A stretch of 64,000 bases of DNA from Escherichia coli (GCF_030384885.1 NZ_CP128613.1); one strand, 5' to 3'; positions 29,091 to 48,446 are shown, counted from the first letter of the stretch. Notes: generated by a model not told the origin, from the letters alone. Made by a program: numbers and translations.

Positions 29091-29410
29091 TATTCATCAG
29101 AAACGATTATGTAAATCATTTTATTTTTCCGACGGCTTCAATGTCGAAAGAAAAGAATACGCCCGTATTTCCTGAATAGATTGACTTTTTTATCCAACCA
29201 CACTTCAGCTCACTGTGTTTAAAAAATGCCTCTTTCTTATGCGGAATATCATCATTTCATCATGATGTCTTTGATGAGCGGTGAACACAATACACTTGCG
29301 CTGTCTCTTCAGGATGAATCCCCTTGGTCTGGTGCCTGTGGGCTGATGTTGCAGCAGAGCTAAGGTTGCTTAAACGCTACTCAGTATTCACTTTTCAGAG
29401 GATGAAATTT

Positions 29411-32400
29411 ATGAACAGGACCAGTCCCTATTATTTTCGCCGCTCAGTACTTTCCTTATTGATATCTGCTTTGATATATGCCCCACCAGGGATGGCAGCT
29501 TTTACTTCAACCGTTATTGGCGTGGTAAACGATGAGACTGTAGATGGCGTCCAAAGAGTGGATGAACGAGGTACAACAAATAACACTCATATTATCAACC
29601 ACGGTTATCAGGATGTTTATGGCGGGGTATCTAATGGAAGTATTATTGAATCTGGTGGATATCAAGATGTAGGAGGTCATTACAATTTTGTGGGGCAGGC
29701 TAATAATACAACCATTAACGGGGGCAGACAGACAATTCATGACGGGGGTATTTCCACAGGTACGATAATCGAGAGTGGCAATCAGGACGTTTATACGGGT
29801 GGTATCAGCAATGGAACGACAATTAAGGGGGGTAATTCACACATAAGTGGGGGGACTGCGAATGGAACAATCATTGATGGTGGCAGCCAACGAGTAACAA
29901 CTCAGGGGCATGTCGACAGTACAACAATAAATAAGTCTGGCTCTCAGGACATCACGCAAGGAAGTCTGGCAACGAACACAACCATAAATGGTGGTCGACA
30001 GTATGTTGAACAGAGCACAGTAGAAACAACCACCATTAAAAATGGCGGTGAGCAAAGAGTATATGAAAACCATGCGCTGGACACGACGATTGAAGGTGGA
30101 ACTCAGTCTTTGAATAATAAGTCAACGGCAAAATATACTCAGATCTATTCTGGAGGTACTCAAATTGTTGATTACACCAGCACCTCGGATGTTATTGAAA
30201 TTTATTCCGGTGGCGTGCTTGATGTTAGTGGTGGTACGGCAACAAATGTTACCCAGCACGATGGTGCAATTTTAAAAACAAACACTAACGGTACGACGGT
30301 GAGCGGTACGAATAGTGAAGGGGCATTCTCTATTCACAATAACGTGGCAGACAATGTGTTGCTGGAAAACGGTGGTCATTTAGACGTATATGGTTCGGCA
30401 AACAAGACAATTATTAAAGATAACGGAACAATGTCAGTTTTAGCGAATGCTAAAGCTGATGCGACCCGAATAGATAATGGCGGCGTTATGGATGTTGCCG
30501 GAAACGCGACAAATACCATAATTAATGGTGGCACACAGAATATAAATAATCATGGTATTGCCACGGGAACCAATATCAACAGCGGAACACAAAATATCAA
30601 GAGCGGCGGGAAAGCTGACACGACAAATATCTCCTCCGGGAGCCGGCAGGTTGTTGAGAAAGATGGTACGGCAACTGGCAGCAATATTAGTGCCGGAGGC
30701 TCGCTGATTGTCTATACCGGTGGTATCGCACATGGGGTTAACCAGGAGACGGGTAGTGCTTTAGTTGCCAACACGGGCGCAGGGACTGATATTGAAGGAT
30801 ACAACAAGCTCTCTCACTTCACTATTACCGGAGGGGAGGCTAATTATGTTGTGCTGGAAAATACCGGCGAACTGACGGTAGTGGCTAAAACCACGGCGAA
30901 AAATACTACCGTTGATGCTGGCGGTAAGCTGATTGTCCAGAAGGAGGCTAAAACAGATAGCACCAGACTTAATAATGGTGGCGTTCTGGAGGTTCAGGAC
31001 GGTGGTGAGGCTAAGCATGTTGAGCAACAATCCGGCGGCGCATTAATTGCTTCCACGACTTCCGGAACACTTATCGAAGGAACTAACAGTTATGGTGATG
31101 CTTTCTACATCAGGAATTCAGAAGCTAAAAATGTAGTGCTGGAAAACGCTGGCTCATTAACAGTCGTTACTGGTTCCCGGGCAGTTGATACGATTATTAA
31201 TGCCAACGGCAAAATGGATGTTTATGGAAAAGATGTTGGCACTGTACTCAATAGTGCGGGCACCCAAACAATATATGCCAGTGCCACTTCTGATAAAGCA
31301 AATATCAAAGGTGGCAAGCAAACGGTATATGGTTTAGCCACTGAGGCAAATATCGAAAGTGGTGAACAAATTGTTGATGGTGGGTCAACAGATAAAACGC
31401 ACCTCAAAGGCGGCACGCAAACCGTTCAGAATTATGGTAAGGCGATCAATACCGATATCGTCTCTGGCCTACAACAAATTATGGCAAACGGGACAACGGA
31501 AGGTTCCATTATTAATGGCGGTTCACAGGTAGTTAATGAGGGCGGTCTGGCTGAAAACTCGGTACTTAATGACGGCGGCACACTCGATGTGCGGGAGAAA
31601 GGCAGCGCTACGGGGATACAGCAGAGTAGCCAGGGCGCGCTGGTGGCAACCACCAGGGCGACGCGGGTCACAGGGACACGCGCTGATGGCGTCGCGTTCA
31701 GCATCGAGCAGGATGCGGCGAACAATATCCTGCTGGCAAATGGCGGCGTGTTAACCGTGGAGTCAGACACCACTTCCGCCAAAACACAGGTCAATGCGGG
31801 CGGACGGGAGATCGTCAAAACAAAAGCCACTGCGACTGGCACGATGCTTACCGGCGGTGAACAAATCGTCGAGGGTGTGGCGAATGAGACAACGATTAAC
31901 GACGGCGGAATACAAACAGTTTCGGCTAACGGTGAGGCAGTAAAAACAACGATTAATGAAGGCGGTACGCTGACAGTCAACGATAATGGCAAAGCGACAG
32001 ATATCATCCAGAACAGCGGTGCCGCTCTCCAGACGAGCACGGCTAACGGTATTGAAATCAGCGGTACTCACCAGTACGGCACCTTTTCCATTGCCGGAAA
32101 TTTAGCGACCAATGCGTTGCTGGAAAATGGCGGTAATTTATTGGTATTAGCAGGTACCGAAGCTCGCGATTCCACGGTTGGCAACGGTGGGGCAATGCAA
32201 AACCTGGGTCAGGACTTCGCCACAAAGGTTAATTCCGGTGGGCAATATACCCTTGGTCGGTCAAAAGATGAGTTTCAGGCTCTGGCCCGGGCAGAAGATC
32301 TACAGGTCGCTGGCGGGACGGCAATCGTCTACGCAGGTACGCTGGCGGATGCATCGGTCAGTGGCGCGACAGGAAGCCTGTCGTTAATGACGCCACGGGA

Positions 32401-33979
32401 TAATGTTACGCCAGTTAAACTTGAAGGGGTGGTCCGGATTACCGATAGCGCGACATTAACTATCGGAAATGGCGTCGATACGACGCTTGCCGACCTGACG
32501 GCTGCCAGCCGGGGCAGTGTCTGGCTTAACAGCAATAATTCCTGTGCAGGCACCAGCAACTGCGAATATAGAGTAAACAGTTTGCTCCTCAACGACGGTG
32601 ATGTTTATTTATCAGCACAAACAGCAGCGCCTGCCACAACTAACGGTATCTACAATACGCTGACCACCAGTGAACTTTCCGGCAGCGGTAATTTCTACCT
32701 GCATACCAACGTTGCAGGCTCCCGGGGCGATCAACTGGTCGTCAACAACAACGCCACTGGCAATTTTAAAATCTTTGTTCAGGATACCGGCGTCAGCCCT
32801 CAGTCTGACGACGCGATGACGCTGGTGAAAACAGGGGGAGGGGATGCTTCGTTTACGCTGGGTAATACCGGCGGTTTCGTTGATCTTGGGACCTATGAGT
32901 ATGTCCTGAAAAGCGACGGCAACAGCAACTGGAACCTGACCAATGATGTCAAACCCAACCCGGATCCCAACCCAAATCCGAAACCGGATCCAAAACCAGA
33001 CCCAAAACCGGATCCGAAACCAGACCCGACTCCCGATCCAACGCCGACACCCGTCCCGGAGAAACGCATCACGCCTTCTACGGCAGCCGTACTCAATATG
33101 GCAGCAACATTACCGTTGGTCTTTGATGCTGAGCTAAACAGTATTCGCGAGCGGTTGAACATAATGAAAGCGAGTCCACACAACAATAATGTCTGGGGGA
33201 CGACGTATAACACCCGTAATAATGTCACCACCGATGCGGGTGCCGGGTTTGAGCAGACGCTGACCGGAATGACGGTGGGGATCGATAGCCGTAATGATAT
33301 TCCTGAGGGGATTGCGACGCTGGGCGCTTTTATGGGTTATTCCCATTCACATATCGGTTTTGATCGTGGAGGACATGGCAGTGTGGGCAGTTATTCTCTG
33401 GGGGGCTATGTCAGCTGGGAACATGAAAGTGGTTTCTATCTGGACGGTATCGTGAAGCTGAACCGCTTTGAAAGTAACGTAGCCGGTAAAATGAGCAGCG
33501 GTGGAGCCGCCAACGGCAGTTATCGCAGCAACGGGCTGGGTGGTCATCTTGAAACCGGGATGCGATTTACCGATGGTAACTGGAACCTGACGCCGTATGC
33601 ATCGTTAACGGGGTTCACCGCTGATAACCCCGAATATCATTTATCCAATGGTATGGAATCGAAATCAGTCGATACCCGCAGTATATATCGTGAACTGGGC
33701 GCAACGCTGAGTTACAACATGCGTCTGGGGAACGGCATGGAAGTTGAGCCGTGGCTGAAGGCGGCTGTGCGCAAAGAATTTGTCGATGATAACCGGGTGA
33801 AAGTGAATAATGACGGTAATTTTGTCAATGATTTGTCGGGCAGACGTGGAATATACCAGGCAGGTATTAAAGCCTCATTCAGCAGTTCGTTAAGCGGGCA
33901 TCTCGGGGTAGGGTATAGCAATGGTGCTGGTTTGGAATCCCCGTGGAACGCGGTGGCTGGTGTGAACTGGTCGTTCTGA
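29411..33979 (+). CDS. ypjA: AIDA-I/Ag43-type autotransporter adhesin (beta-helix passenger with ~19-aa repeats, Pro-rich linker, C-terminal beta-barrel translocator)
   Basis: Start MNRTSPYYFRRSVLSLLISALIYAPPGMAAF (signal peptide; SD aggatg upstream; alt ATG 29402); dozens of GGxQxVxxGGxAxxTxI repeats; C-terminal ...NAVAGVNWSF barrel; position next to ssrA island end as ypjA in K-12. Confidence 0.8.
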   Translation: MNRTSPYYFRRSVLSLLISALIYAPPGMAAFTSTVIGVVNDETVDGVQRVDERGTTNNTHIINHGYQDVYGGVSNGSIIESGGYQDVGGHYNFVGQANNTTINGGRQTIHDGGISTGTIIESGNQDVYTGGISNGTTIKGGNSHISGGTANGTIIDGGSQRVTTQGHVDSTTINKSGSQDITQGSLATNTTINGGRQYVEQSTVETTTIKNGGEQRVYENHALDTTIEGGTQSLNNKSTAKYTQIYSGGTQIVDYTSTSDVIEIYSGGVLDVSGGTATNVTQHDGAILKTNTNGTTVSGTNSEGAFSIHNNVADNVLLENGGHLDVYGSANKTIIKDNGTMSVLANAKADATRIDNGGVMDVAGNATNTIINGGTQNINNHGIATGTNINSGTQNIKSGGKADTTNISSGSRQVVEKDGTATGSNISAGGSLIVYTGGIAHGVNQETGSALVANTGAGTDIEGYNKLSHFTITGGEANYVVLENTGELTVVAKTTAKNTTVDAGGKLIVQKEAKTDSTRLNNGGVLEVQDGGEAKHVEQQSGGALIASTTSGTLIEGTNSYGDAFYIRNSEAKNVVLENAGSLTVVTGSRAVDTIINANGKMDVYGKDVGTVLNSAGTQTIYASATSDKANIKGGKQTVYGLATEANIESGEQIVDGGSTDKTHLKGGTQTVQNYGKAINTDIVSGLQQIMANGTTEGSIINGGSQVVNEGGLAENSVLNDGGTLDVREKGSATGIQQSSQGALVATTRATRVTGTRADGVAFSIEQDAANNILLANGGVLTVESDTTSAKTQVNAGGREIVKTKATATGTMLTGGEQIVEGVANETTINDGGIQTVSANGEAVKTTINEGGTLTVNDNGKATDIIQNSGAALQTSTANGIEISGTHQYGTFSIAGNLATNALLENGGNLLVLAGTEARDSTVGNGGAMQNLGQDFATKVNSGGQYTLGRSKDEFQALARAEDLQVAGGTAIVYAGTLADASVSGATGSLSLMTPRDNVTPVKLEGVVRITDSATLTIGNGVDTTLADLTAASRGSVWLNSNNSCAGTSNCEYRVNSLLLNDGDVYLSAQTAAPATTNGIYNTLTTSELSGSGNFYLHTNVAGSRGDQLVVNNNATGNFKIFVQDTGVSPQSDDAMTLVKTGGGDASFTLGNTGGFVDLGTYEYVLKSDGNSNWNLTNDVKPNPDPNPNPKPDPKPDPKPDPKPDPTPDPTPTPVPEKRITPSTAAVLNMAATLPLVFDAELNSIRERLNIMKASPHNNNVWGTTYNTRNNVTTDAGAGFEQTLTGMTVGIDSRNDIPEGIATLGAFMGYSHSHIGFDRGGHGSVGSYSLGGYVSWEHESGFYLDGIVKLNRFESNVAGKMSSGGAANGSYRSNGLGGHLETGMRFTDGNWNLTPYASLTGFTADNPEYHLSNGMESKSVDTRSIYRELGATLSYNMRLGNGMEVEPWLKAAVRKEFVDDNRVKVNNDGNFVNDLSGRRGIYQAGIKASFSSSLSGHLGVGYSNGAGLESPWNAVAGVNWSF
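32950..33058 (+). repeat. Hexanucleotide-based Pro-Asp/Pro-Lys tandem repeat (PNPDPNPNPKPDPKPDPKPDPKPDPTPDPTPTPVP linker)
   Basis: ccggatccaaaaccagacccaaaaccggatccgaaaccagacccg... directly visible. Confidence 0.6.
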
Positions 33980-34139: not shown

Positions 34140-34183
34140 TGGTGGGCTGGCGGGAGTTGAACCCGCGTCCGAAATTCCTACAT
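34140..34183 (-). repeat. Partial direct repeat of ssrA 3' end (att site copy), one base shorter than the intact end
   Basis: tggtgggctggcgggagttgaacccgcgtccgaaattcctacat vs intact tggtggagctggcgggagttgaacccgcgtccgaaattcctacat at 48498. Confidence 0.75.
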
Positions 34184-34346
34184 ACTAATAATATATCTTT
34201 AAAATCAAAATATTCTATTATTTATCAATGTATTATGTTTATGTGGTGTTAAGGGGTTTATATGGGTTTTAGTTCTCTGCCGCCAAAATGCCGCCAAAAA
34301 AATTGAATGGTAAAACGCCAGTTCGTTGAACTGGCGAGATCTTGTC

Positions 34347-35114
34347 TTATTGTTTTATTATCTTAACGTGCGCCGTTCCTCCATTGACTTTTTCGAAATC
34401 TTGGAACAAGGCAGGGGCATCTTGAGTTACAATATCGTAAAGTTTTTCTGAAACTGTTCTCATTTCATAGTCACCCTGTATTGCTCCTCTCATTTCGAAG
34501 AAGTGTCGAATTGCGCGAGCATTTGCTGTGACGATTATTTTTGTCTCGGTTGCATTAGGCAATATAGAGCGAGAAGCGCTTCTTAAGGCCCGCATTTTTT
34601 CTTTTTTGTTCTCATACGATTGGTTTTCACGGATTTTTTTCAAGGATTGCTTATAAAAATCCAGACTACTTTCAATATGTTGGCACCATGACTTAAACAA
34701 TTCTGGGTCATTTTTTACTTCTATAGGGGCTACGAATTCAGCATCGGATTCATCATGATACTGTTGGGATAACTGGCTATATGAAAAACCAGCTCTATGC
34801 CGAACTAGCTGGTGTGTAAATGCACGAGATACCCCAGTAATTAAAAAGGTCCAGTTCAAATGTTCTAAGACACTTTCATGCCCTTGAATAATTAAATTGT
34901 TGATATATTGACTTGTAGTCCGTGGAGACTGCTTATCCTCTCCAAAAGACATATAACATAGCCTGCCAGCGGCCTCTACCAGAAGCTCAGCTTCGGTCGC
35001 CTGCCCTTTGCGAACCCATTGCAATGATGATGTGTTTAAAAAATCATCAAAAACATTACTTTCAAATGAAGGGTGTGATATGCATTTTACTGATAAATCA
35101 GAGATTTTTATCAT
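34347..35114 (-). CDS. thyX: Flavin-dependent thymidylate synthase ThyX
   Basis: 255 aa with ThyX signature RHRAGFSYSQLSQQY (RHRx7-8S...RY) and C-terminal ARAIRHFFEMR; AT-rich. Confidence 0.75.
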   Translation of the reverse strand: MIKISDLSVKCISHPSFESNVFDDFLNTSSLQWVRKGQATEAELLVEAAGRLCYMSFGEDKQSPRTTSQYINNLIIQGHESVLEHLNWTFLITGVSRAFTHQLVRHRAGFSYSQLSQQYHDESDAEFVAPIEVKNDPELFKSWCQHIESSLDFYKQSLKKIRENQSYENKKEKMRALRSASRSILPNATETKIIVTANARAIRHFFEMRGAIQGDYEMRTVSEKLYDIVTQDAPALFQDFEKVNGGTAHVKIIKQ

Positions 35115-35116
35115 TT

Positions 35117-35902
35117 TTACTCCCGTATAGCTTTTGGGGTGCTTACTTTAGCATCAACCTTTGGTTCGTTTGATTTAGCATTTTTTAGTAATTCAACGGT
35201 GCTTTTTAGGCTATTTATTTCATTTTGTTGAACTTTTATTGTTAATTCAAGATCTTTTGTACTACTGACATTACTGGATACTATTTGAAATAAGAAAGGA
35301 ATTGCTAGGGTTATCAACGTTAGCATTAAGGCTGCTATCGCAATTATAAAGCCAGTTTTTTTCGCAATGATTTTATTGATTTCTTTCGGAAGTCGTTTAT
35401 CAAGTCCTGCAAAATCCTTTCCCATTCTAGAAAGTTGATCATCATCCAATTTATTTACGATTTTTCCTTGGTAACCTTTAGTCGGTATTATTGTTTTAAA
35501 TAATAACATTCGGGCTACTGCTGAATTTTGTGTCAATGAGAATGGTTCTTTTGACATATTTACAAGATATATTGAAATTATGCCATTATATCCAGGGTCA
35601 ATATGCCCTGGATTCGTCATGATAATTCCATTTTTTGATAGTGTGTTTCTTGGAAATATTACACCAGCTAAATTTTTTGCAAGTTGGAATTTTTCATTTA
35701 ACTCTAATATTACAGTTTCCCCTGGCATCAGGATATGGTTGTTACGTGTTTTTTTATTGTCTTGACAGTCTGGTATATGTATTGTTTTTACAGAGAGATC
35801 AATGCTTGCAGATTGAACTTTAAATGTTCCATTTAATACCGTTAATGGATCAAAAATGTTGCCTCGCTGAATTTCATCATTGATTTCTATTTCAGACAGC
35901 AT
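35117..35902 (-). CDS. dCTP deaminase/dUTPase-fold (Dcd-like) domain protein with C-terminal TM helix and coiled-coil tail; catalytic Glu apparently replaced
   Basis: Aligns to E. coli Dcd: ASIDLSV / LMPGETVILEL / PRNTLSKNG / IDPGYNGIISIYLVN (Dcd has IDPGWSGCIVLEFYN); residues 185-210 hydrophobic (GFIIAIAALMLTLITLAIPFLF). Confidence 0.6.
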   Translation of the reverse strand: MLSEIEINDEIQRGNIFDPLTVLNGTFKVQSASIDLSVKTIHIPDCQDNKKTRNNHILMPGETVILELNEKFQLAKNLAGVIFPRNTLSKNGIIMTNPGHIDPGYNGIISIYLVNMSKEPFSLTQNSAVARMLLFKTIIPTKGYQGKIVNKLDDDQLSRMGKDFAGLDKRLPKEINKIIAKKTGFIIAIAALMLTLITLAIPFLFQIVSSNVSSTKDLELTIKVQQNEINSLKSTVELLKNAKSNEPKVDAKVSTPKAIRE

Positions 35903-35928
35903 ATCAAAATCCTATATTTGTAAAGTTA

Positions 35929-36942
35929 TTATAAATTAGCCAGAGGGTTTTTTATTACTGCATCTTCAAGATGCTCTGGGGAAAAATGTGCATAAATCAT
36001 AGTCATTTTTATATCAGAGTGGCCTAAAATATCTCGTAAAACCAAAATATTACCACCATTCATCATAAAATGGCTGGCGAATGTATGGCGCAGAACGTGA
36101 GTGCATTGGCCCTCTGGTAACTCAATGTCAGCTCGCTTTACTGCTCGTTCAAAGGCTTTTCTGCAAGGAGTGAATAACTTCCCTCTGTTCTTAGGGAGTT
36201 CGTCATACAGATCCTGAGATATCGGCACGGTACGGTTTTTCTTGCCCTTAGTCTTGGTATAGGTGATCCGGTATTTCGATAACTGATGGCCCTGCAGATT
36301 TTCGGCTTCACTCCAGCGCGCGCCGGTGGCCAGGCATATTTTTGTAATTAAAAGTAGACTGGGGCTTTGAGAATCAGCACAGGCATCCAGCAGACGTTTA
36401 ATTTCTTCCGGGGTCAGGAACGACAGTTCACCCTCAGCAATTTTAAATGTTGGCAGCCCGGCAAGCGGATTGGGGGCTGACCAGTGGCCCAACTTTTTCA
36501 GTGTGCCAAAAACAGATGATAGGTTGCGCTGTTCAAGGTTTACAGTGCGGGGCTTAACGGGCGACATAAGCGTGCCCTCTTCATTTCGCACTTCACCTTT
36601 TAGCCGCGCTTCTCGGTATTTAGTAAAATCACCGGCTGTCAGCTCTGAGGCGATGGGATCGCCTAGACCATTACAGATAATTCTAAGTTTCGCCATGAGG
36701 CGCTTGGGGTCTGCGAGTGTTTGACCATACAGGGAATACCACTGCTCAATTAATTCTGATAGGTGTCGCCGATCTTCCTTTTCCCCCAGCCATGGCTTTT
36801 TGTTCACTTCTTCCATTGTGAAGCTTTCAAAAGCAATGGCTTCGCCTTTCGTAGCAAATTGCTTACGCACGCGCTTGCCATTGCGTCCATGGGGATAGCA
36901 CTCGCACAACCATTTACCGTTTGGCTGTTTTCTGACAGTCAT
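35929..36942 (-). CDS. int: Tyrosine integrase, P2 family
   Basis: 337 aa; N-terminus MTVRKQPNGKWLCECYPHGRNGKRVRKQFATKGEAIAFE resembles P2 Int MAIKKLDDGRYEVDIRPTGRNGKRIRRKF...; C-terminal HxxR...Y catalytic region (HVLRHTFASH...MIYAH). Confidence 0.85.
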   Translation of the reverse strand: MTVRKQPNGKWLCECYPHGRNGKRVRKQFATKGEAIAFESFTMEEVNKKPWLGEKEDRRHLSELIEQWYSLYGQTLADPKRLMAKLRIICNGLGDPIASELTAGDFTKYREARLKGEVRNEEGTLMSPVKPRTVNLEQRNLSSVFGTLKKLGHWSAPNPLAGLPTFKIAEGELSFLTPEEIKRLLDACADSQSPSLLLITKICLATGARWSEAENLQGHQLSKYRITYTKTKGKKNRTVPISQDLYDELPKNRGKLFTPCRKAFERAVKRADIELPEGQCTHVLRHTFASHFMMNGGNILVLRDILGHSDIKMTMIYAHFSPEHLEDAVIKNPLANL

Positions 36943-36944
36943 GT

Positions 36945-37577
36945 TTAGATACTCTTTATTACTTTGACTGCACGCCCAATAACTTCCACATCATCAGTAG
37001 AGCACTCGAAAGACGCTTCATCTTGATTTACTACAATCTTATTGCCGGGAATCCGCATGATTTTTGCAACAATAATCATTCCATCAATATTGATAAGCCA
37101 GAATCCATTGCTGACCTGTTTAATTGATTTATCGATGAGATAACAATTAGTAGGGGTTTCTAAGAACATCAATTCTTCATAATCTGCAGGTAATATGCTG
37201 TGGTCTAGGAAAATCTCTTCATCAATACTGAGTTGTCCATTCTCCAGGGTTCCTTTAGGAATAGCTGGAGTTATGAGTTTGGATAACGGTTTAATTGCTT
37301 GTTTGTTCTCATTATGAGAACTTTTCTCAGGCTCAGCTCCTCCTTTCATGCTTCCCTGTCCTGTAGCTAACCAAAGCAACGAAACACCGGTTTCTAGTGC
37401 GCACTGAATTATCCAGTCAGCAGGAAAGCTGTCACGTAACACTCTGTTTGCCATAGTGCTTTTTGAGACATTCAGGTGCTCGCTTAATGCCTGCTTAGTT
37501 GTGAATCCATAAGCCTCAAGCAGCCTTTCAATAGCTGCCTTACCTCCCGTATCGGAACCCATTCTGATGTTTAACAT
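36945..37577 (-). CDS. CI-type immunity repressor (HTH N-domain + C-terminal oligomerisation domain, 186-like)
   Basis: 210 aa, HTH KQALSEHLNVSKSTMANRVLRD; located between int and divergent apl/cII as in coliphage 186. Confidence 0.65.
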   Translation of the reverse strand: MLNIRMGSDTGGKAAIERLLEAYGFTTKQALSEHLNVSKSTMANRVLRDSFPADWIIQCALETGVSLLWLATGQGSMKGGAEPEKSSHNENKQAIKPLSKLITPAIPKGTLENGQLSIDEEIFLDHSILPADYEELMFLETPTNCYLIDKSIKQVSNGFWLINIDGMIIVAKIMRIPGNKIVVNQDEASFECSTDDVEVIGRAVKVIKSI

Positions 37578-37698
37578 TGGTGATCTCCATTTGACAATCT
37601 TGAATCAAGATCGTAATGTCTTCATGTCTCTTGATGTGAGAGTTTAAGAGACGGGCTAAAACGAACTAACACGCACACAAAGTAAGAGATACTGCACT
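37578..37698. promoter_or_regulatory. Divergent lysogenic/lytic promoter-operator region between cI and apl
   Basis: Position by analogy with 186 pR/pL switch; inferred. Confidence 0.3.
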
Positions 37699-37941
37699 AT
37701 GAGTACTGATATTTCAATTCGTGTACCAAAAGAGATGGCTACGCCTGCAGAGTTCGCAGAGTGGGAGGGTATTTCCCGCGGCTCTGTTTACCAAAAAATT
37801 CACCATGGTCAACTTGCTAAGTACATGGTCAAGAAAGAAAAAAACAAAGGCCGCGTAAGCCTGCGTTATCTGATGTACAAAACCGATCAGGTCCGTGAAT
37901 CCCTCGGTCATTCCAACTTCCGCGTCATTGTTGGTAAGTAA
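37699..37941 (+). CDS. Apl/Cox-like small HTH excisionase-regulator
   Basis: 80 aa first gene of rightward operon; gene order int-cI / apl-cII. Confidence 0.5.
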   Translation: MSTDISIRVPKEMATPAEFAEWEGISRGSVYQKIHHGQLAKYMVKKEKNKGRVSLRYLMYKTDQVRESLGHSNFRVIVGK

Positions 37942-37973
37942 GTTCAATTATGGGAACTTTCTAAGGGGGCACC

Positions 37974-38483
37974 ATGTTTGATTACAAGATTTCCAAACAT
38001 CCGCATTTCGATGAAGCCTGTAGGGCTTTTGCACTGCGCCACAACCTGGTGCAACTGGCAGAACGTGCAGGCATGAATGTGCAGATTCTGCGGAACAAGC
38101 TGAACCCAGCTCAACCTCATTTATTAACTGCACCAGAAATCTGGTTGCTTACCGATCTGACTGAAGATTCAACGCTGGTAGATGGTTTTCTGGCTCAGAT
38201 TCACTGCCTGCCATGTGTACCGATTAATGAGGTGGCAAAAGAGAAACTGCCACATTACGTCATGAGTGCAACCGCAGAGATCGGGCGTGTCGCGGCAGGT
38301 GCGGTTTCTGGCGATGTAAAAACCAGTGCAGGCCGTCGTGATGCGATCAGCAGCATTAACTCTGTTACACGACTGATGGCGCTGGCTGCTGTTTCATTGC
38401 AGGCCCGTTTACAGGCTAATCCTGCGATGGCGAGTGCGGTTGATACCGTGACTGGCCTCGGTGCTTCATTCGGTTTGCTGTGA
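37974..38483 (+). CDS. CII-like lysogeny establishment activator (186 CII family)
   Basis: 169 aa, [45 protein letters not shown]... resembles 186 CII in length and sequence. Confidence 0.7.
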
Positions 38484-38490
38484 GGTGCTT

Positions 38491-38787
38491 ATGCTGATGA
38501 AAGAACCATCATTTGCATCGCTCCTGGTAAAACAAAGTCCGGCAATGCACTACGGTCACGGCTGGATCATGGGTGAGGATGGTAAACGCTGGCATCCGTA
38601 CCGTTCACAAGATGAATTGCTGTCTGAATTGACCACGAGGAAACGGAGAAAGTCCAAATGTATGCGGCAGAAAATAAAGTGGTTTATCACTTTCGTTACA
38701 GAGGGGAGAATTATTCAGTACCTGAAGATGATTTGCTCTGTTGCTATCCGTCGTTGTCGGGCGATGGTAGCTACTTTTTCACGCTAA
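38491..38787 (+). CDS. Small hypothetical early-operon protein (C-terminal part may be out-of-frame run-on)
   Basis: ATG 38491 MLMKEPSFASLLVKQSPAMHYGHGW...; overlaps next ORF in another frame. Confidence 0.3.
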   Translation: MLMKEPSFASLLVKQSPAMHYGHGWIMGEDGKRWHPYRSQDELLSELTTRKRRKSKCMRQKIKWFITFVTEGRIIQYLKMICSVAIRRCRAMVATFSR

Positions 38788-38882
38788 AGGATGGAACCTT
38801 TATACGTGGTGAAAAAGTACAAGAAGTGATGCGTATAAAGACATCACCTCTTGAACGTTATCGGCGAAATATTTATCGGTAA
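38658..38882 (+). CDS. Hypothetical 74-aa phage protein
   Basis: MYAAENKVVYHFRYRGENYSVPEDD...; protein-like composition. Confidence 0.4.
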   Translation: MYAAENKVVYHFRYRGENYSVPEDDLLCCYPSLSGDGSYFFTLKDGTFIRGEKVQEVMRIKTSPLERYRRNIYR

Positions 38883-39121
38883 CGATCTATCAGTGTCTGT
38901 ATCAGATGAGTGAATTCTTGTTGTTTAACCGAACCTAAAGGAAGTTTGTTTAATTCTTCGCGGAGGAGCTCAAAAAATGCTGATTGATTTGCTGAGTCAG
39001 TTCGAAATAAGGAGTGGATCAGACCTGAAACAAGAATTCGTTGAACAGCAACCTCATCGCGAAGACTGGAGATCTCGTTTTCAAGTTGCTCTATACGCTC
39101 TCTTTCAACCGGGTTCAACAT
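38873..39121 (-). CDS. Hypothetical 82-aa coiled-coil protein, opposite orientation to the early operon
   Basis: MLNPVERERIEQLENEISSLRDEVAVQRIL...; antisense partner ORF looks like junk. Confidence 0.3.
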   Translation of the reverse strand: MLNPVERERIEQLENEISSLRDEVAVQRILVSGLIHSLFRTDSANQSAFFELLREELNKLPLGSVKQQEFTHLIQTLIDRYR

Positions 39122-39202
39122 TGATGATTCCTTCTAGCTATCAATATGTTGGTAATGGATCATATCAAAAATTTTTTAGTAGATGTGTTGTGGGATGCAT
39201 AA

Positions 39203-39544
39203 ATGGCTATTGAAGGCACTGCGGCGACTGTTCCATTAAGCCCCGGTGAACGCCTGAATGGACTTAATCACATTGCGGAGTTAAGGGCGAAAGTTTTTGG
39301 CCTGAATATTGAGTCAGAGCTTGAGCGGTTTATTAAAGATATGCGTGATTCACGGGATATTAATAGCGAACAAAATAAACGGGCACTGGCTGCCATATTC
39401 TTTATGGCAAAAATTCCAGCTGAACGTCATAGCATCAGCATTAATGAGCTGACCACTGACGAAAAGCGGGAGTTGATTAAAGCAATGAATCATTTTCGTG
39501 CAGTGGTGAGCTTATTTCCCAGACGGCTAACCATGCCGAATTAA
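39203..39544 (+). CDS. Hypothetical 113-aa phage early protein
   Basis: ORF with start near SD; unknown function. Confidence 0.45.
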   Translation: MAIEGTAATVPLSPGERLNGLNHIAELRAKVFGLNIESELERFIKDMRDSRDINSEQNKRALAAIFFMAKIPAERHSISINELTTDEKRELIKAMNHFRAVVSLFPRRLTMPN

Positions 39545-39605
39545 CCAACTAATGAAATTAATGGCGTAAACCCGCCGGGCATCCCTTTATCTAAATTCAG
39601 GAGAA

Positions 39606-39845
39606 TTGATTATGCGTAATATTGAAACCCTCTCGACCAAAACCGGACCGGATGACGCAGGGCTTAATATTTTACTGACAGAGGCTCGTCTGGAAGAACG
39701 CCGGGCAAGGGCTGAAGCAATGGCAGCTCGCCTTGATAGCCTGGCGTGTCATATCACATCCCGCCAGCTAACCCACGTCGAAGCGGCAGAACTGCTTCGT
39801 GTGACTGCTGAAGCAATCCAGAACGAAGCGCAGGAGATCCACTGA
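39606..39845 (+). CDS. Hypothetical 79-aa phage early protein
   Basis: ATGA-coupled to following traR-like gene. Confidence 0.45.
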   Translation: MIMRNIETLSTKTGPDDAGLNILLTEARLEERRARAEAMAARLDSLACHITSRQLTHVEAAELLRVTAEAIQNEAQEIH

Positions 39846-40072
39846 TGGCTGATGCAATGGATCTCGTACAGCAGCGCGTTGAAGAAGAACGCCAACGCCA
39901 TATCCGTGCTGCCCGTGCCAAAACGCCGGGCGTGTCCCGCGTGCTTTGCATTGAGTGTGAAGCGCCAATTCCGCCAGCACGCCGCCGTGCCATTCCGGGT
40001 GTGCAGCTTTGCATTACCTGTCAGGAAATCGCAGAGCTGAAAGGCAAACATTACAACGGAGGTGCTGTATGA
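39845..40072 (+). CDS. TraR/DksA-family C4 zinc-finger protein
   Basis: 75 aa with CIECEAPIP...CITCQ four-Cys finger. Confidence 0.7.
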   Translation: MADAMDLVQQRVEEERQRHIRAARAKTPGVSRVLCIECEAPIPPARRRAIPGVQLCITCQEIAELKGKHYNGGAV

Positions 40073-40926
40073 GCACCATCCTGAAATGGGCGGGAAATAA
40101 AACTGCCATAATGTCCGAACTGAAAAAACATCTTCCTGCTGGCCCGCGACTGGTTGAACCTTTCGCGGGTTCCTGTGCTGTGATGATGGAGACGGATTAT
40201 CCCAGCTATCTGGTTGCGGATATTAATCCTGATTTAATCAACCTCTATAAAAAGGTTGCCGCTGATTGTGAATCGTTTATATCTCGCGCCAGAGTTTTAT
40301 TTGAGATCGCAAACAGGGAGGTGGCTTATTACAACATAAGGCAGGAGTTTAATTACTCAACTGAAATTACTGATTTCATGAAAGCGGTATATTTCCTGTA
40401 TCTCAATCGTCACGGTTACCGTGGTTTATGTCGCTATAACAAGAGCGGGCATTTCAACATTCCCTACGGTAATTATAAAAATCCGTATTTCCCTGAAAAA
40501 GAAATTCGCGCATTTGCAGAAAAGGCCCAGCGAGCAACGTTTATCTGCGCCAGCTTTGATGAAACGCTGGCGATGTTGAAGGCGGGGGATGTGGTGTATT
40601 GCGATCCGCCGTATGACGGTACGTTTTCCGGCTATCACACTGACGGCTTCACTGAAGATGACCAGTATCACCTGGCATCTGTTCTTGAACATCGGTCATC
40701 AGAAGGACATCCGGTCATTGTTTCTAACAGTGACACATCCCTGATCCGTTCGCTGTATCGCAATTTTACTCACCACTACATCAAGGCAAAACGCAGCATC
40801 GGTGTGGCAGCTGGCGAGGGTAAATCAGCAACAGAAATCATTGCTGTTTCCGGGCCGCGCTGCTGGGTGGGATTTGATTATTCGCGTGGCGTGGATAGTT
40901 CTGCCGTGTACGGAGTACGTGCATGA
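40069..40926 (+). CDS. dam: N6-adenine DNA methyltransferase (Dam/D12 class)
   Basis: [11 protein letters not shown]... N-terminal SAM-binding FxGxG-like region and DPPY motif ([10 protein letters not shown]); start overlaps traR-like stop (ATGA), stop overlaps repA start. Confidence 0.8.
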
Positions 40927-43337
40927 GTCATGCCGATATGAACAACTGCTGCGGCTTTAACGAAGCTGCCGCATCGTTCTCATGGAACAGCCCGAAAAAG
41001 GCCATTAACCCTTATCTGGACCCGGCGGAAGTTGCGCCGGTTTCTGCGCTTTCAAACCTGATCACTCTGTACGCTACTGATAACGAGCAGGAACAACTGC
41101 GCCGCGAGGCACTGAGTGATCAGGTCTGGGAGCGTTATTTCTTTAATGAATCCCGTGATCCTGTCCAACGCGAAATGGAGCAGGATAAGCTCATTAGCCG
41201 GGCAAAGATGGCGCATGAGCAGCAGCGTTTTAATCCAGACATGGTCATTCTGACTGACGTCAACGCCCAGCCTTCCCATATCAGCAAGCCGCTGATGCAA
41301 CGTATTGAATATTTCAGCAGCCTGGGCAGGCCAAAGGCTTATTCCCGCTATTTGCGTGAGACGATTAAGCCATGTCTGGAACGACTGGAGCATGTACGCG
41401 ACAGCCAGCTATCTGCATCTTTTCGTTTTATGGCAAGCCATGAAGGGCTGGACGGTCTGCTGATCCTGCCTGAAATGAGTCAGGATCAGGTGAAACGCCT
41501 GTCTACCCTTGTCGCTGCGCATATGAGCATGTGTCTTGATGCCGCTTGTGGTGATTTGTACGCCTCCGATGATGTTAAGCCAGAAGAAATCCGCAAGACA
41601 TGGGAAAAGGTGGCTGCAGAAACCCTGCGACTGGATGTCATACCGCCTGCGTTTGAGCAACTCCGCCGGAAAAGAAACCGCCGCAAACCTGTGCCTTATG
41701 AACTCATTCCGGGTTCGCTGGCGCGTATGCTGTGCGCCGACTGGTGGTATCGGAAATTATGGAAGATACGTTGCGAATGGCGGGAAGAGCAGTTGCGTGC
41801 TGTCTGCCTGGTCAGCAAAAAAGCATCTCCCTATGTCAGCTATGAAGCCGTGATGCATAAACGTGAGCAGCGCCGTAAGTCGCTGGAGTTTTTCCGTTCT
41901 CATGAACTGGTGAACGAAGACGGCGACACGCTGAACATGGAGGATGTGGTAAACACCAGCAGCAGCAACCCGGCGCATCGCCGCAACGAGATGATGGCCT
42001 GTGTTAAAGGCCTAGAGCTTATCGCGGAAATGCGTGGTGACTGCGCCGTTTTCTACACCATCACCTGTCCGTCACGTTTCCATTCCACGCTAAATAACGG
42101 CAGGCCAAACCCGACCTGGACCAACGCGACAGTAAGACAAAGCAGCGATTATCTGGTCGGCATGTTTGCTGCATTTCGTAAGGCTATGCACAAAGCCGGG
42201 TTGCGCTGGTATGGCGTGCGGGTGGCTGAGCCGCATCATGACGGCACAGTTCACTGGCACCTGTTGTGTTTCATGCGCAAAAAAGACCGCCGCGCCATTA
42301 CTGCATTGTTGCGTAAGTTTGCCATCCGTGAAGACCGCGAGGAGCTGGGCAATAACACGGGGCCACGCTTTAAGTCTGAGCTGATAAACCCGCGCAAAGG
42401 AACGCCGACAAGCTACATTGCGAAATATATCAGTAAGAATATTGACGGGCGTGGTCTGGCTGGCGAGATCAGTAAGGAAACGGGTAAATCCCTGCGTGAT
42501 AACGCTGAATACGTTAATGCCTGGGCGTCTCTGCATCGTGTTCAGCAATTCCGCTTCTTTGGCATTCCGGGGCGTCAGGCTTACCGTGAACTGCGATTGC
42601 TGGCTGGTCAGGCGGCAAGGCAACAGGGTGACAAAAAAGCAGGTGCGCCGGTACTGGATAACCCGCGCCTTGATGCCATCCTGGCTGCTGCTGATGCTGG
42701 TTGTTTTGCCTCCTACATCATGAAGCAGGGCGGCGTACTGGTTCCCCGCAAATATCACCTCATCAGAACCGCTTATGAAATCAACGAAGAGCCGACCGCC
42801 TATGGCGATCACGGTATTCGTATTTATGGCATCTGGTCACCCATTGCAGAGGGCAAGATCTGCACTCATGCAGTGAAGTGGAAAATGGTTCGTAAGGCCG
42901 TTGACGTTCAGGAGGCGGCAGCCGACCAGGGCGCTTGCGCCCCTTGGACTCGTGGCAATAACTGTCCCCTTGCTGAAAATTTGAACCAACAGGAGAAAGA
43001 TAAATCAGCTGATGGGGACACCAGAACGGACATTACCCGCATGGATGACAAGGAGTTGCACGATTACCTGCACAGTATGAGCAAAAAAGAGCGCCGGGAA
43101 CTGGCTGCAAGGTTACGCCAGGTGAAACCGAAACGGCGTAAAGACTACAAACAGCGAATTACAGACCATCAGCGACAGCAGCTCGTCTATGAACTGAAGT
43201 CCAGGGGATTTGATGGCAGTGAGAAAGAAGTCGATTTGCTCCTTCGCGGTGGCAGTATTCCGTCAGGAGCAGGCCTGCGTATTTTCTATCGGAACCAGCG
43301 TCTGAAGGAAGATGATAAGTGGCGGAACCTGTATTAA
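40923..43337 (+). CDS. P2 gpA-like rolling-circle replication initiation endonuclease
   Basis: 804 aa; HUH-type motif [10 protein letters not shown] and double-tyrosine motif YIAKYISK as in P2 A/phiX174 A proteins. Confidence 0.85.
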
Positions 43338-43489
43338 TTACGCGGGTTAACAATTCGTGCCCTTAATAATACCAGGCATATCAGGCTGATGAATGTAAAA
43401 AAACGTTTTACATCAGTAAGATTATTATATACTGTAAATATAAACAGTGGTTATCTATACAGTATTGCTTTGGTGTCATAGGAGGAAAG

Positions 43490-43678
43490 ATGCAGGACTA
43501 TTTTTTGGAGTCTTTGAAGCTCCAGCGCATTGATTTTTTTCTTAAGCTTGTAGCGGCTAGTGAGTGTAGTGATGAAGAGAAGGGGCTGGCTCTGCAGTGG
43601 GTTTCTGAACTGACAGATGAACTCATGGCAAAAATCAGAACCCACGAATACAACCGCTCAATGGATGTCATCAGCTGA
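43490..43678 (+). CDS. Hypothetical 62-aa protein
   Basis: Small ORF preceding dinI-like gene. Confidence 0.3.
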   Translation: MQDYFLESLKLQRIDFFLKLVAASECSDEEKGLALQWVSELTDELMAKIRTHEYNRSMDVIS

Positions 43679-43688
43679 GGTGACTTTT

Positions 43689-43922
43689 ATGCGCATTGAA
43701 ATAATGATCGATAAAGAGCAGAAGATTAGCCAGTCTACCCTGGACGCCCTTGAATCCGAGCTTTACCGCAATCTGCGCCCCCTGTATCCCAAAACGGTAA
43801 TCCGTATCCGTAAAGGTAGCTCTAACGGTGTGGAACTGACCGGACTGCAACTGGACGAAGAAAGAAAACAAGTGATGAAAATTATGCAGAAGGTGTGGGA
43901 AGACGACAGCTGGCTGCATTGA
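43689..43922 (+). CDS. DinI-family DNA-damage-inducible protein
   Basis: MRIEIMIDKEQKISQSTLDALESELYRNL...WEDDSWLH parallels DinI MRIEVTIAK...LSRR...WESADDW. Confidence 0.7.
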   Translation: MRIEIMIDKEQKISQSTLDALESELYRNLRPLYPKTVIRIRKGSSNGVELTGLQLDEERKQVMKIMQKVWEDDSWLH

Positions 43923-44035
43923 TTTTGTCAATAGACGCTTGTTTTTACTAATCAAAAAGGGTTACATATGAGTGAGAGGCGATGTCAATCAGATATCGCC
44001 TTGTTTTTTGTCAAGAAAAGAATAATAGGCTAAAA

Positions 44036-44713
44036 ATGAAAATTAATAATGTAGCGTTACCAATATCTCTTGCTGTAATCCTAACTGGTTGCGTGCCACA
44101 TGCTTCTAACCGAAATATCACTGCTATTGAAGTGGTGAAGCCTGCTATTGGGCAAAGTGCTACCGCCTACATGGGCGATCCCATTATCACATCTGCTACT
44201 GGATTTAAAACGGACGTACTAGAACTTGGTGCGGCTAATGGTGCATTGTCTTCTATCGCTGCTGGTACATATTGCAGTGAGGGGAATGGAATTTACCGCA
44301 ATTATCATAACCCTCAAGCTGTTGCGTTAAAAAATCTCTATGGGCAAATCGGTAACTATGTTGATTATGTTAGTTACGATGCTGCAAAAAATGAGATATC
44401 ACCGCCAAATGGTACTTCTTATACTGCATCAGAAATTTCTATCAAACGTGTTCCTGATGGGCTGTGTCGAGTTAGTAACTCATTGGTTAAGACTATCGAA
44501 TACAATGGAAATGCAGGCGGTGTAATGAAGTTCACCTATCGTGAATTTGCAAACGATATGGCTCGTGCAGCATTTACAACAGATTTTTCTGTAGATTCTA
44601 AGGGAAGTGACGTTATCGCTTACAAAGGTGCCAAGTTCAAAGTGAACAAGGCTGATAACTCGTCTATTTCTTATACAATTATTTCTGGCTTTGACAAGGC
44701 TGTCACGTTCTAG
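44036..44713 (+). CDS. Lipoprotein of unknown function (prophage hotspot cargo)
   Basis: MKINNVALPISLAVILTGC lipobox (LTGC); ~33% GC; start alternative 43982. Confidence 0.6.
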   Translation: MKINNVALPISLAVILTGCVPHASNRNITAIEVVKPAIGQSATAYMGDPIITSATGFKTDVLELGAANGALSSIAAGTYCSEGNGIYRNYHNPQAVALKNLYGQIGNYVDYVSYDAAKNEISPPNGTSYTASEISIKRVPDGLCRVSNSLVKTIEYNGNAGGVMKFTYREFANDMARAAFTTDFSVDSKGSDVIAYKGAKFKVNKADNSSISYTIISGFDKAVTF

Positions 44714-45038
44714 GTTTCACGCTTACTGAGTATGTTACGATTTTGCACATTCTGCATAAACGCGCATGTCTATGCTGCATGAGATCGCATGATCGTTTGA
44801 GGATCTTTTGTGTTAAGGCCCGCCAGTTCTGGCGGGCTTTTGCGTAGATCATGCAGGTGCATGAAAACCACTACATAAAGCGGGCAGGCGTGGCGGGGAT
44901 ACGAGCGCGCGTTATGACAAATAGATGATTAGCCTGATTTATTCACAGCTGTATAAATGATCACCTTGTAATTAGGTAAGTAATGTCTTCTATTATCATT
45001 GATTTGATAGGATTAATCTGTTTTTTGAGGATTAGAGG

Positions 45039-47375: not shown

Positions 47376-47386
47376 TTTTATTGCAA

Positions 47387-47416
47387 TTGCCAGTAGCAAC
47401 AATACGGTACTGGCAA
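47387..47416. terminator. Hairpin between convergent RloC-like gene and portal fragment (possible bidirectional terminator)
   Basis: ttgccagta-gcaacaatacgg-tactggcaa 9-bp stem flanked by T/A runs. Confidence 0.35.
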
Positions 47417-47424
47417 CTAATATT

Positions 47425-47823
47425 TTAGTTAAGCTCATATGGAGAAAATTCTATAAGTTTCTCCCCGAGCCATGCGTTTATTTCCATAAATCGTTTTTGC
47501 AAAGGAATTAATTCATTTATCACAAAAACCTTACTAGCCTTCTCCACATCCCCAAACCCCCCAACATTATTAGGCATTATCCCCATCATTTGCGGCGGCA
47601 CACGGTGTGCCGCCATCATGTCGTCCCGGCTCACGTTCTTGATATTCAGAAACTCATCCTTCGCCGCGACTTCTGACAACGGGATAATCTGAAGCCCGTC
47701 CTTTTTGCCGTTAGGAGAGTACATAAACAGGTTGCGGAAGTTGCCTGGCCCTTTGGCACTTTTCATTGCGTTGCGGAGGTTGTTCACATCTTCTTGGTTC
47801 TGTGCGGCATCGGTCATGTACAT
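47425..47823 (-). pseudogene. Phage portal-like (P2 gpQ-like) C-terminal fragment; upstream part disrupted
   Basis: 132-aa ORF ...RVPPQMMGIMPNNVGGFGDVEK... oriented toward the hotspot as Q is relative to old/cos in P2; coding continues upstream only with frame breaks. Confidence 0.4.
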
Positions 47824-48153
47824 GATGAAACCTGCATGGCTGCCGTTGATGTAATACTTACGGCGGAACAGTGTGGCGGACTCGTTGAGCAGGGCTGACG
47901 GGATGGCAGAGAGATAACCTGGCAGGCCGTAGATCTCCTGGTTGATGTCCGGTTCCGCCCTTAATCATCTCAACCATGCGTTACAGCTCGATCCCCGCTG
48001 TGGCGTGAAAAAAGACAAACAGCAGCTGGAGCGCAGACTGCGCAATGACAGCCGCTGACAGAACGTGCCCCCGCGCACGGGCGGCACGGGGTGGCGAAAG
48101 GCACAGCCACATCAAAACCCCGTCCACCGCCCTTTATTTCAGGAGAAAGCAGC

Positions 48154-48357: not shown

Positions 48358-48446
48358 AAGTGAAGTTCTTCCATGTGAAACCTCTTTGCATGATTTCAAG
48401 ATGGCGACAGGCAAGATGGACGCAAAAGTCTGTCGCCATTTTGCCG

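Follow-up and report, generated by a model that had tools for sequence, protein, structure and literature searches.

The two adjacent genes analyzed here, dcdL and thyX-Q, lie in a 64,000-nucleotide stretch of Escherichia coli DNA (GCF_030384885.1, NZ_CP128613.1; hereafter the window, at its full length), and their closest described relatives are enzymes of deoxypyrimidine metabolism. DcdL shares its fold and clade with the dCTP deaminases and the bifunctional dCTP deaminase-dUTPases (DCD-DUT; structures 4xjc, 2qlp and 1xs1), and ThyX-Q is a homolog of the flavin-dependent thymidylate synthases (ThyX; structures 2af6/3gwc and 1o26). Among phages, T4 encodes the gp56 dCTPase, the gp42 dCMP hydroxymethylase, the gp1 kinase and the Cd deaminase, and dCMP methylation is known from XP12-type phages. 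AvcD-type anti-phage dCTP deaminases, each a zinc cytidine deaminase with a P-loop domain, act in the deoxycytidine/deoxyuridine branch and are a validated defense family that works by depletion of deoxynucleotides (dNTPs). DS-4 of DefensePredictor combines a ThyA-like thymidylate synthase (TS) with a dNMP kinase, a protein resembling a kinase for 5-hydroxymethyldeoxyuridine (5-hmdU-kinase-like) and a TIR protein. It is a validated E. coli defense operon, so TS-like enzymes can be defense components. Finally, a 2026 survey of P2-like prophages found that the region between the integrase gene and the attachment site (int-att) is a minor defense hotspot, with about 3% of the recognizable P2 defense systems (PMC13586616).

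The pair in the window lies between int and att of a P2-like prophage remnant, but a hotspot is a location and not a mechanism, and the pair is not among the recognized systems. It resembles AvcD in the nucleotides it would act upon and in the proposed starvation of phages, whereas the fold of AvcD is unrelated to that of DcdL and the pair usually occurs without AvcD, as in the window. It shares a TS-family enzyme with DS-4, but that enzyme has the PF00303 fold and other partners, and DS-4 has no Dcd-like or transmembrane (TM) protein; the accessions WP_053891067 and WP_053891068 do not occur in the accessible part of the DefensePredictor DS-4 tables. Gene names listed with numeric scores in Table S3 of DefensePredictor include "FAD-dependent thymidylate synthase" and "dCTP deaminase", and no conclusion is drawn from these rows. 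The defining residues of Dcd, Dut and canonical ThyX were each examined and found altered or missing, and because of this the module is best viewed as a probable variant of nucleotide-directed conflict systems and not as a member of any of the three. We propose that dcdL and thyX-Q form an undescribed pyrimidine-nucleotide conflict module of the dC/dU/dT branch, probably anti-phage, although exclusion of competitors would also fit, and we give this reading a probability of about 0.5. That the pair serves in conflict or defense of some kind is slightly favored, and any one specific chemistry is, taken singly, unlikely. The unit itself is much firmer: DcdL and ThyX-Q almost certainly constitute a real, conserved two-gene functional unit.

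The pair is mobile, strictly co-inherited and under purifying selection. A word-seeded search returned 48 DcdL homologs of about 250-300 amino acids (aa), ranging from Enterobacterales to Pseudomonas and Shewanella, and a profile search of 1.84 billion cluster representatives returned 485 at E<=1e-30, nearly all of them full-length. With one genome taken per species, the signature TNPGH[IV]DPG occurs at 51 loci in 185,579 species genomes, and it occurs at 10 loci in viral contigs. In nearly every one of the approximately 60 loci whose sequence extends far enough, ThyX lies directly downstream of DcdL, and the stop codon of one gene frequently overlaps the start codon of the next; these partners are 43-61% identical to the ThyX of the window; at a few loci ThyX is within about 3 kb of DcdL in the other orientation. 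The reverse test was seeded on the ThyX-subtype motif [YF]SQLSQQY in metagenomes, counting loci with at least 900 bp upstream. DcdL was present in 54 of 55 such ThyX-Q loci, three more loci have DcdL on the other side, and it is absent from all 76 of the canonical viral-contig ThyX loci.

At least seven phyla carry the pair (Pseudomonadota, Acidobacteriota, Actinomycetota, Cyanobacteria, Verrucomicrobiota, Bacteroidota and Myxococcota). When the flanking open reading frames (ORFs) were clustered, DcdL and ThyX were the only families shared among loci, with differing flanks. A housekeeping TS of Acidobacteria was considered and ruled out by the small number of loci among the species genomes, the differing flanks and the shuffled gene order. 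Most DcdL genes are in bacterial chromosomes (over 500 matches came from metagenomes and 10 loci from viral contigs), and megablast and tblastn searches of 50,697 GenBank phage records and of PLSDB plasmids found no true family member, only distant ordinary Dut/Dcd. Within E. coli, blastn found the cassette in 1 of 5,426 complete genomes, even at "distant" sensitivity, and relatives of the prophage backbone in 1,361 of the same set. The cassette DNA is 99.8% identical to that of E. coli strain TUM12355, and both proteins are 100% identical to copies on independent viral contigs.

DcdL is a Dcd-family protein that lacks the deaminase residues. It matches Pfam DCD (5.9e-15), Pfam dUTPase (1e-12) and, over nearly its full length, phrog_1663 ("dCTP deaminase"), and its profile alignment with the Dcd/DCD-DUT clade begins at residue 1 and so takes in the MLLSD...G N-terminus. 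Against the curated models it stays under the cut-offs, with 56.2 bits for TIGR02274 Dcd (cut-off 92.8) and 45.5 bits for Dut (NF001862/TIGR00576; cut-off 103). In HMMER alignments to solved Dcd/DCD-DUT chains, ISIYLVN of DcdL lies opposite ITLELFN/ITLELSN, so that by alignment Tyr112 stands in place of the Dcd catalytic Glu. Residue statistics were taken over 297 unique family members. The Glu138 column holds Thr in 211, Cys in 39, Tyr in 33 and Ala in 9, with Ser or Val in the rest and neither Glu nor Asp in any; the columns at Dcd Ser111 (S/N/A/T) and Arg115 (K/S/F/A/V) are not conserved, and the Arg of the GRSS motif is Pro in 252. Because the deaminase residues are missing family-wide, we predict that DcdL cannot use the mechanism of Dcd to convert dCTP to a uracil nucleotide. 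A Glu supplied from elsewhere in the protein was also considered and is not favored; the invariant acidic residues E70, D35 and D102 are conserved in canonical Dcd too. The only family-specific invariant acidic residue of DcdL is D163, in the helix that precedes the membrane.

Part of the dUTPase apparatus is retained. The motif III Asp, which is the Asp of I/V-D-P-G in the Dcd and DCD-DUT enzymes, is present as D102 in 296 of the 297 proteins, and the aromatic sugar gate that follows it (Y/F105) in 295. The Arg of dUTPase motif II (Arg-Ser) is replaced by Pro in most members, the positions of the motif IV Arg...Gln read V-A-T/R-L, and no stretch resembling G-F-G-S-T-G of motif V occurs in DcdL, where the C-terminus consists of a DF...R motif, a TM helix and a tail. 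Across the family 17 columns are invariant, and the near-invariant positions are S33, D35, G61, E70, P84, T96-N-P-G-H100, D102-P-G, G107, N115-M116 and D163-F164...R170.

The C-terminal additions, together with the ThyX-variant partner, distinguish DcdL further from the Dcd and DCD-DUT enzymes. In the AlphaFold2 (AF2) model (pLDDT 80), a Dcd-type barrel at residues 1-150 (pLDDT about 90 or above over most of it) is followed by a helix at 154-163 and then by one continuous long helix at 167-243. The best Foldseek matches to the model are the bifunctional enzymes 4xjc and 2qlp; for these and 1xs1 the probability is 1.00, with an E value of 6e-12 and TM-scores of 0.69-0.79. The DF...R helix may correspond to the C-terminal arm found in Dcd and Dut. 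A hydrophobic 19-mer (Kyte-Doolittle >=1.6) is found at the same position in 277 of 283 DcdL proteins, and since the N-side of the TM helix is rich in Lys, an N-in/C-out topology is predicted. The presence of the tail is conserved (median 58 aa) while its sequence is variable: beyond residue 170 no column is invariant, and Leu232 alone is at least 90% conserved. A TM-anchored Dcd fold would be a new architecture coupling nucleotide sensing to the membrane.

ThyX-Q scores 154.8 against TIGR02170, over the cut-off of 87.9, and shares about 40% identity with actinobacterial ThyX (E=7e-42); its nearest solved structures are those of Mycobacterium tuberculosis (Mtb) and Corynebacterium ThyX. Like the canonical enzymes it has RHR, the Ser and Tyr of S-x-x-Y, and R209 (equivalent to Thermotoga maritima (Tm) R174 and Mtb R199), all of which are invariant in the subfamily. 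The canonical motif is RHR-x(7-8)-S-x-R-Y, read S-Q-R-Y, whereas the subfamily pattern is RHRxG[FWVI][SA][YF]SQ[LM]SQQY. Gln thus takes the place of the conserved Arg, one residue is inserted after RHR (RHRxG), and Gly stands for the His of the canonical H-A-D/Q motif. At the column of Mtb R107, all 49 genome loci and 78 of the 80 metagenome loci have Gln, whereas the 64 readable canonical viral ThyX all have Arg; about 45 columns are invariant in the subfamily. Mtb R107 (T. maritima R90) is among the conserved residues of the dUMP site (PMC6514825), and together with R199 it makes an electrostatic contact to the Watson-Crick edge of uracil (PMC12004180). The R90A substitution severely impairs methylene transfer, with slower consumption of the flavin carbinolamine (PMC8316439). 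ThyX-Q probably has an altered substrate or an altered chemistry.

An earlier description of the window from its sequence, the sequence-only reading, had already placed a Dcd-like gene and a thyX gene at 34347-35902, between an ssrA repeat and a P2-type int, and both minus-strand ORFs (with Pfam DCD and Thy1 matches), the 41-nt repeat and the integrase were recovered. Its claims that the Dcd-like protein lacks the catalytic Glu and ends in a hydrophobic helix and a Lys-rich tail were likewise borne out, the former by the alignment to Dcd/Dut structures and the family-wide count. It quoted the ThyX signature as an ordinary one, which it is not, as Arg-to-Gln defines the subfamily; and its estimate of about 30% GC for both genes comes near for dcdL (32.2%) but not for thyX (38.7%; window, 47.6%). 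The cross-phylum pairing, the ThyX subfamily and the ThyA-like replacement described below go beyond it.

Genes contiguous with the pair are nominally nucleotide enzymes. Two of them occur chiefly in Acidobacteriota, in varying gene orders: a NUDIX hydrolase (21 loci) and a 348-aa partner (24 loci), which has no PHROG or NCBIfam match and resembles the MazG domain only marginally (Pfam E=2.4e-4, under the cut-off). A PfkB-family kinase occurs at 7 loci and a small P-loop protein, without a significant family match, at 4. At six loci in different phyla the neighbor is an anti-phage-type dCTP deaminase, co-oriented and operon-like (PADLOC dCTPase 8e-154; NF041025 1.6e-106, just below cut-off).

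One viral contig (L062, IMGVR_UViG_2585428058_000004) has DcdL but no ThyX, and the immediate neighbors of dcdL there are a ThyA-family gene (PF00303, 5e-78) and a gene for a PfkB kinase. Aligned with E. coli ThyA, the ThyA-like protein has Asn177->Asp, Tyr94->Val and His147->Leu. Asn occupies position 177 in 77 of 80 readable motif matches among viral ThyA relatives; L274 also has Asp. Replacement of this Asn by Asp (Asn177/Asn229) makes TS prefer dCMP, and T4 dCMP hydroxymethylase has Asp there. The L062 gene may encode a dCMP-directed enzyme, though a single locus is a lead and not a proof. Viral scans with the L062 proteins for further pairs of DcdL with a ThyA-type gene gave the same contig and one truncated relative.

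Three variants of the arrangement were also observed. In Acidobacteriota (L006, L009, L011, L013, L014, L024 and about 15 metagenome loci), the pair, NUDIX(+WGR-like) and the 348-aa protein form a four-gene cluster in which order and orientation are shuffled between loci and contiguity is kept. The lone ThyX-Q locus with ample upstream sequence and no DcdL (L130, metagenome contig Ga0207684_10002863) has PfkB, NUDIX and the MazG-like partner instead, and may be a DcdL-less variant or a rearrangement. In a Myxococcales metagenome-assembled genome, a 430-aa protein that clusters with DcdL (L039 2506-3798) lies upstream of a ThyX-Q / PfkB / DcdL array and may be a second, longer DcdL paralog.

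In the window, direct repeats of ssrA sequence (34146-34186 and 48505-48545, 98% identical) bound a 14.3-kb 186/P2-like prophage remnant (34187-48504), and the recN-smpB-ssrA flank has 99.7% identity to E. coli genomes. The remnant contains CI, integrase, CII, a Dam-type methylase, GpA, DinI, an AAA_13 ATPase and a portal fragment of 132 aa (47425-47823). All genes for capsid, tail and lysis have been lost; the regulatory and cargo genes are intact. The genes cI, int, dcdL and thyX are separated by gaps of 2, 26 and 2 nt, and their ribosome-binding sites lie within or ahead of the preceding stop codon, as with the AGGA site inside the 26-nt gap between the integrase stop and the dcdL start. 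Past the thyX stop, at a distance of 11 nt, a terminator-like hairpin with a T-run likely marks the operon end, although the consensus terminator scanner did not report it. From the short gaps, the positions of the ribosome-binding sites and the hairpin, we infer that cI-int-dcdL-thyX is probably one lysogenic transcription unit. In a 96%-identical sibling prophage (E. coli MINF_1D, integrated elsewhere) another gene fills the int-att slot.

Elsewhere the surroundings of the pair vary. It is common in Citrobacter koseri, at the edge of an integrative and conjugative element or beside a complete Menshen system (NsnA/B/C matches, 1e-115 to 1e-83) and a 5-methylcytosine (m5C) restriction-modification (RM) system. 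The Pseudomonas aeruginosa pair is flanked by a DpdF/PsyrT-like helicase, a STAND NTPase and PD-Lambda-3_B. In Pantoea ananatis a P2-like prophage has the pair at its ogr/att end, across att from the position seen in the window. Housekeeping genes enclose it as an isolated two-gene islet in Shewanella and Serratia. Several of 144 immediate neighbors match defense models, a count made without a control.

The conflict module that we favor could work as follows. The pair is cargo of the int-att slot and, because of its probable co-transcription with cI and int, lysogens are expected to express it. In this model DcdL is a trimeric nucleotide binder of the Dcd fold that would be held at the inner membrane by its C-terminal helix with the helical tail outside. 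Since it keeps the hydrolytic Asp of the dUTPases and DCD-DUT enzymes, it would bind, and possibly hydrolyze, a deoxypyrimidine triphosphate; alternatively it may only bind. Together the two proteins would drain or divert deoxypyrimidine nucleotides needed by an infecting phage. The membrane anchor and tail may serve localization, for instance to the site of DNA entry, or the sensing of infection, and both suggestions are guesses. This model is close to one of the two proposals in the sequence-only reading, pool depletion or a decoy with a TM sensor or effector, which fits better than the other in view of the mobile unit, the defense islands, the P2 hotspot and the deaminase neighbors. The relation to anti-phage dCTP deaminases that was proposed alongside it stands as a matter of neighborhood and fails as one of homology, given the different fold of AvcD and the lack of a PADLOC match for DcdL.

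As for chemistry, the Arg of canonical ThyX would donate to O4 of uracil, whereas Gln could accept a hydrogen bond from the N4 amino group of cytosine, and the retained R199 equivalent could donate to unprotonated N3 of cytosine. This geometry, with the Asn-to-Asp change in the ThyA substitute, makes dCMP an attractive candidate substrate of ThyX-Q, a hypothesis that we hold tentatively and with the odds against it. In the most detailed version, ThyX-Q would be the first ThyX-fold enzyme to methylate or hydroxymethylate dCMP at C5, its substrate would come from DcdL acting as a membrane-tethered dCTP pyrophosphatase gated by infection, and the two would be a joint anti-phage system that sinks the dC pool irreversibly; we regard this combination, too, as unlikely to hold. 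The dC pool would end as 5-substituted dCMP, or as dTMP where an AvcD-type deaminase is attached. Such a system would recall T4 and XP12-type phages, in which a dCTP pyrophosphatase is combined with a C5 one-carbon transferase of the TS superfamily having Asp for Asn, the same Asp as in the lone ThyA-type partner of DcdL. Unlike those phage systems, the candidate transferase here has the ThyX fold, the first protein is membrane-anchored, and the genes are in a probable lysogenic operon and mostly chromosomal.

If the pair is a defense system, it would be a mechanistically distinct addition to nucleotide-pool immunity, made from two housekeeping folds. If ThyX-Q acts on dCMP, ThyX chemistry would extend to a new base, and Arg->Gln in ThyX and Asn->Asp in ThyA would be convergent solutions for reading cytosine over uracil. 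Annotation pipelines label the two folds "dCTP deaminase" and "thymidylate synthase", and about 500 public protein clusters are probably mis-annotated.

A different possibility is that the genes form an auxiliary thymidylate module, with DcdL as a Dcd-like dUTPase and ThyX-Q converting dUMP to dTMP, either to supply dTTP to the phage or to give the host a route independent of ThyA and dihydrofolate reductase, for example under antifolate stress. We consider this doubtful. The TIGR02170 score of ThyX-Q is what such a module would predict, but the uracil-edge Arg is gone across the whole subfamily. The Asp typical of dUTPases and the Tyr/Phe that gates the sugar are both present in DcdL, whose fold resembles that of Dcd-like archaeal dUTPases (8y1w and 9ln0; Foldseek), and yet a soluble enzyme would have no need of the conserved TM helix and outer tail. 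One locus does have a ThyA-family gene for ThyX, which would suit thymidylate synthesis were it not for Asn177->Asp and Tyr94->Val in that very protein. Accessory genes that are nominally nucleotide enzymes also fit, and thyX and dut are common in phages; however, DcdL is absent from the canonical phage ThyX loci and true family members from the GenBank phage records, and in the window the genes are in a lysogenic and not a replicative transcription unit. E. coli moreover has its own thyA, dcd and dut. The channel from dCTP through dUMP to dTMP, the other proposal of the sequence-only reading, is not supported as written, as both the deaminase residues and the conserved uracil-edge Arg are lacking.

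The same enzymes could instead serve DNA modification, DcdL as a dCTP pyrophosphatase and ThyX-Q as a dCMP C5-methylase or hydroxymethylase, so that with kinases a 5-substituted dCTP would enter the DNA of the element or host as protection from restriction or CRISPR, as in T4/XP12-type phages. The descent of DcdL from the cytosine-nucleotide (Dcd) clade, with a profile alignment to M. tuberculosis DCD-DUT that starts at residue 1, points in this direction, as do the Arg-to-Gln change at the base edge of ThyX-Q and the Asn-to-Asp switch in the ThyA substitute. The PfkB, P-loop, NUDIX, MazG-like and dCMP/dCTP deaminase neighbors nominally resemble the gp56/gp42/gp1/Cd set of T4, but most core loci, that of the window included, have no dedicated kinase or glycosyltransferase. 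The position in the lysogenic operon of a temperate phage and the largely chromosomal distribution also argue against it, and the TM anchor would be left unexplained. For a host that has McrBC or Mrr, m5C or 5-hydroxymethylcytosine (hm5C) incorporated at random would be a liability. We consider DNA modification quite improbable.

That the two genes are non-functional relics decaying in a dying prophage is very improbable: the prophage is a remnant with a truncated portal gene and each protein lacks a canonical catalytic residue, but both ORFs are intact, the copies in TUM12355 and on viral contigs are nearly or fully identical, and the same substitutions are fixed in hundreds of homologs across phyla together with the many invariant columns of both families, which indicates purifying selection and rules out pseudogene decay.

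Several points weigh against the conflict module. PADLOC v2 has no match for DcdL, ThyX-Q, the integrase or CI, and in the searched literature on ThyX, dCTP deaminase, anti-phage defense, defense islands and P2 hotspots we found no description of the pair and no link of this form between defense and ThyX or a Dcd-like protein. The association with defense islands rests on a handful of inspected loci and the uncontrolled neighbor count, and ordinary metabolic genes make up many of the flanks. Several of the residues with which Dcd and Dut bind phosphate are missing from DcdL, which could be catalytically inert, while ThyX-Q, which passes the ThyX equivalog cut-off and keeps RHR, Ser, Tyr and the second Arg, may still make dTMP. 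Constitutive expression from a lysogenic operon would require some control of activity. In favor of the conflict module, the remnant has no virion genes, yet the cassette and a PADLOC defense candidate, PDC-S06, are intact.

Table 1. Coordinates of the features discussed (window positions unless a contig is named)
Feature	Position	Strand	Basis
att repeat, 41 nt, duplicating the ssrA 3' end	34146..34186	.	Left end of the remnant
Terminator-like hairpin CGCCAGTT-CAACG-AACTGGCG, then TTTTA	34311..34336	-	Direct sequence reading
thyX-Q, 255-aa flavin-dependent thymidylate synthase homolog, distinct subfamily	34347..35114	-	Pfam Thy1 2.6e-48
ThyX-Q motif RHRAGFSYSQLSQQY, aa 105-119; Gln118 for the conserved Arg (Mtb R107 / T. 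maritima R90)	34758..34802	-	Alignment
dcdL, 261-aa membrane-anchored Dcd-family protein without deaminase residues	35117..35902	-	ORF and Pfam
DcdL Lys-rich tail past the membrane, predicted helical, 53 aa, 8 Lys	35120..35278	-	Model helix; tail statistics
DcdL predicted single TM helix, aa 184-208, GFIIAIAALMLTLITLAIPFLFQIV	35279..35353	-	Sequence hydrophobicity
DcdL short pre-membrane helix with invariant Asp163-Phe164...Arg170	35393..35443	-	Invariant columns; model helix 154-163
DcdL Dcd-type beta-barrel domain, aa 1-152; signature MTNPGHIDPGY-G...NM	35447..35902	-	AF2 and alignments
DcdL Tyr112 codon, position of the Dcd catalytic Glu	35567-35569	-	HMMER alignments
P2/186-type tyrosine integrase	35929..36942	-	Pfam Int_N and Phage_integrase
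186-type CI repressor, first gene of the probable cI-int-dcdL-thyX unit	36945..37577	-	Pfam Phage_CI_repr and Phage_CI_C
AAA_13 ATPase, 778 aa	45039..47375	+	Pfam AAA_13 5.8e-164; PADLOC candidate PDC-S06 1.5e-266
tmRNA gene (ssrA)	48498-48860		
ThyA-family gene beside dcdL, viral contig L062	8719-9558 (= L223 5001-5840)		PF00303

The related prophages differ from the remnant in their content. The copy in TUM12355 (L001) retains genes for the tape measure, D and ogr, and next after this copy come a second integrase, ParB genes and a type I RM system. The gene in the MINF_1D slot (L316 2931-3860) encodes a 309-aa protein of phrog_17460, function unknown, with no PADLOC or NCBIfam match, and is an uncharacterized cargo candidate.

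Other genes of the remnant are of interest in their own right. The AAA_13/PDC-S06 gene occupies the classical tin/old (GpA-GpQ) hotspot of P2-like phages, with DinI/GpA on one side and the portal fragment on the other, and is immediately preceded within the hotspot by a 243-aa ORF (43982-44713, plus strand). Neither this ORF nor one of 134 aa (47970-48374, minus strand) has a Pfam or PADLOC match. The Dam-type N6-adenine methyltransferase (40009-40926, plus strand; PADLOC "orphan MTase", 3e-111) is phage-borne, in the early operon, and its gene overlaps the start of the replication gene gpA (40923-43337, plus strand). Outside the remnant, a 1551-aa autotransporter-like ORF (29324-33979, plus strand) contains a long linker of (P-D/N/K) repeats and stops 166 bp short of the att repeat; its start in the mechanical ORF list is TTG, and the true start is uncertain.

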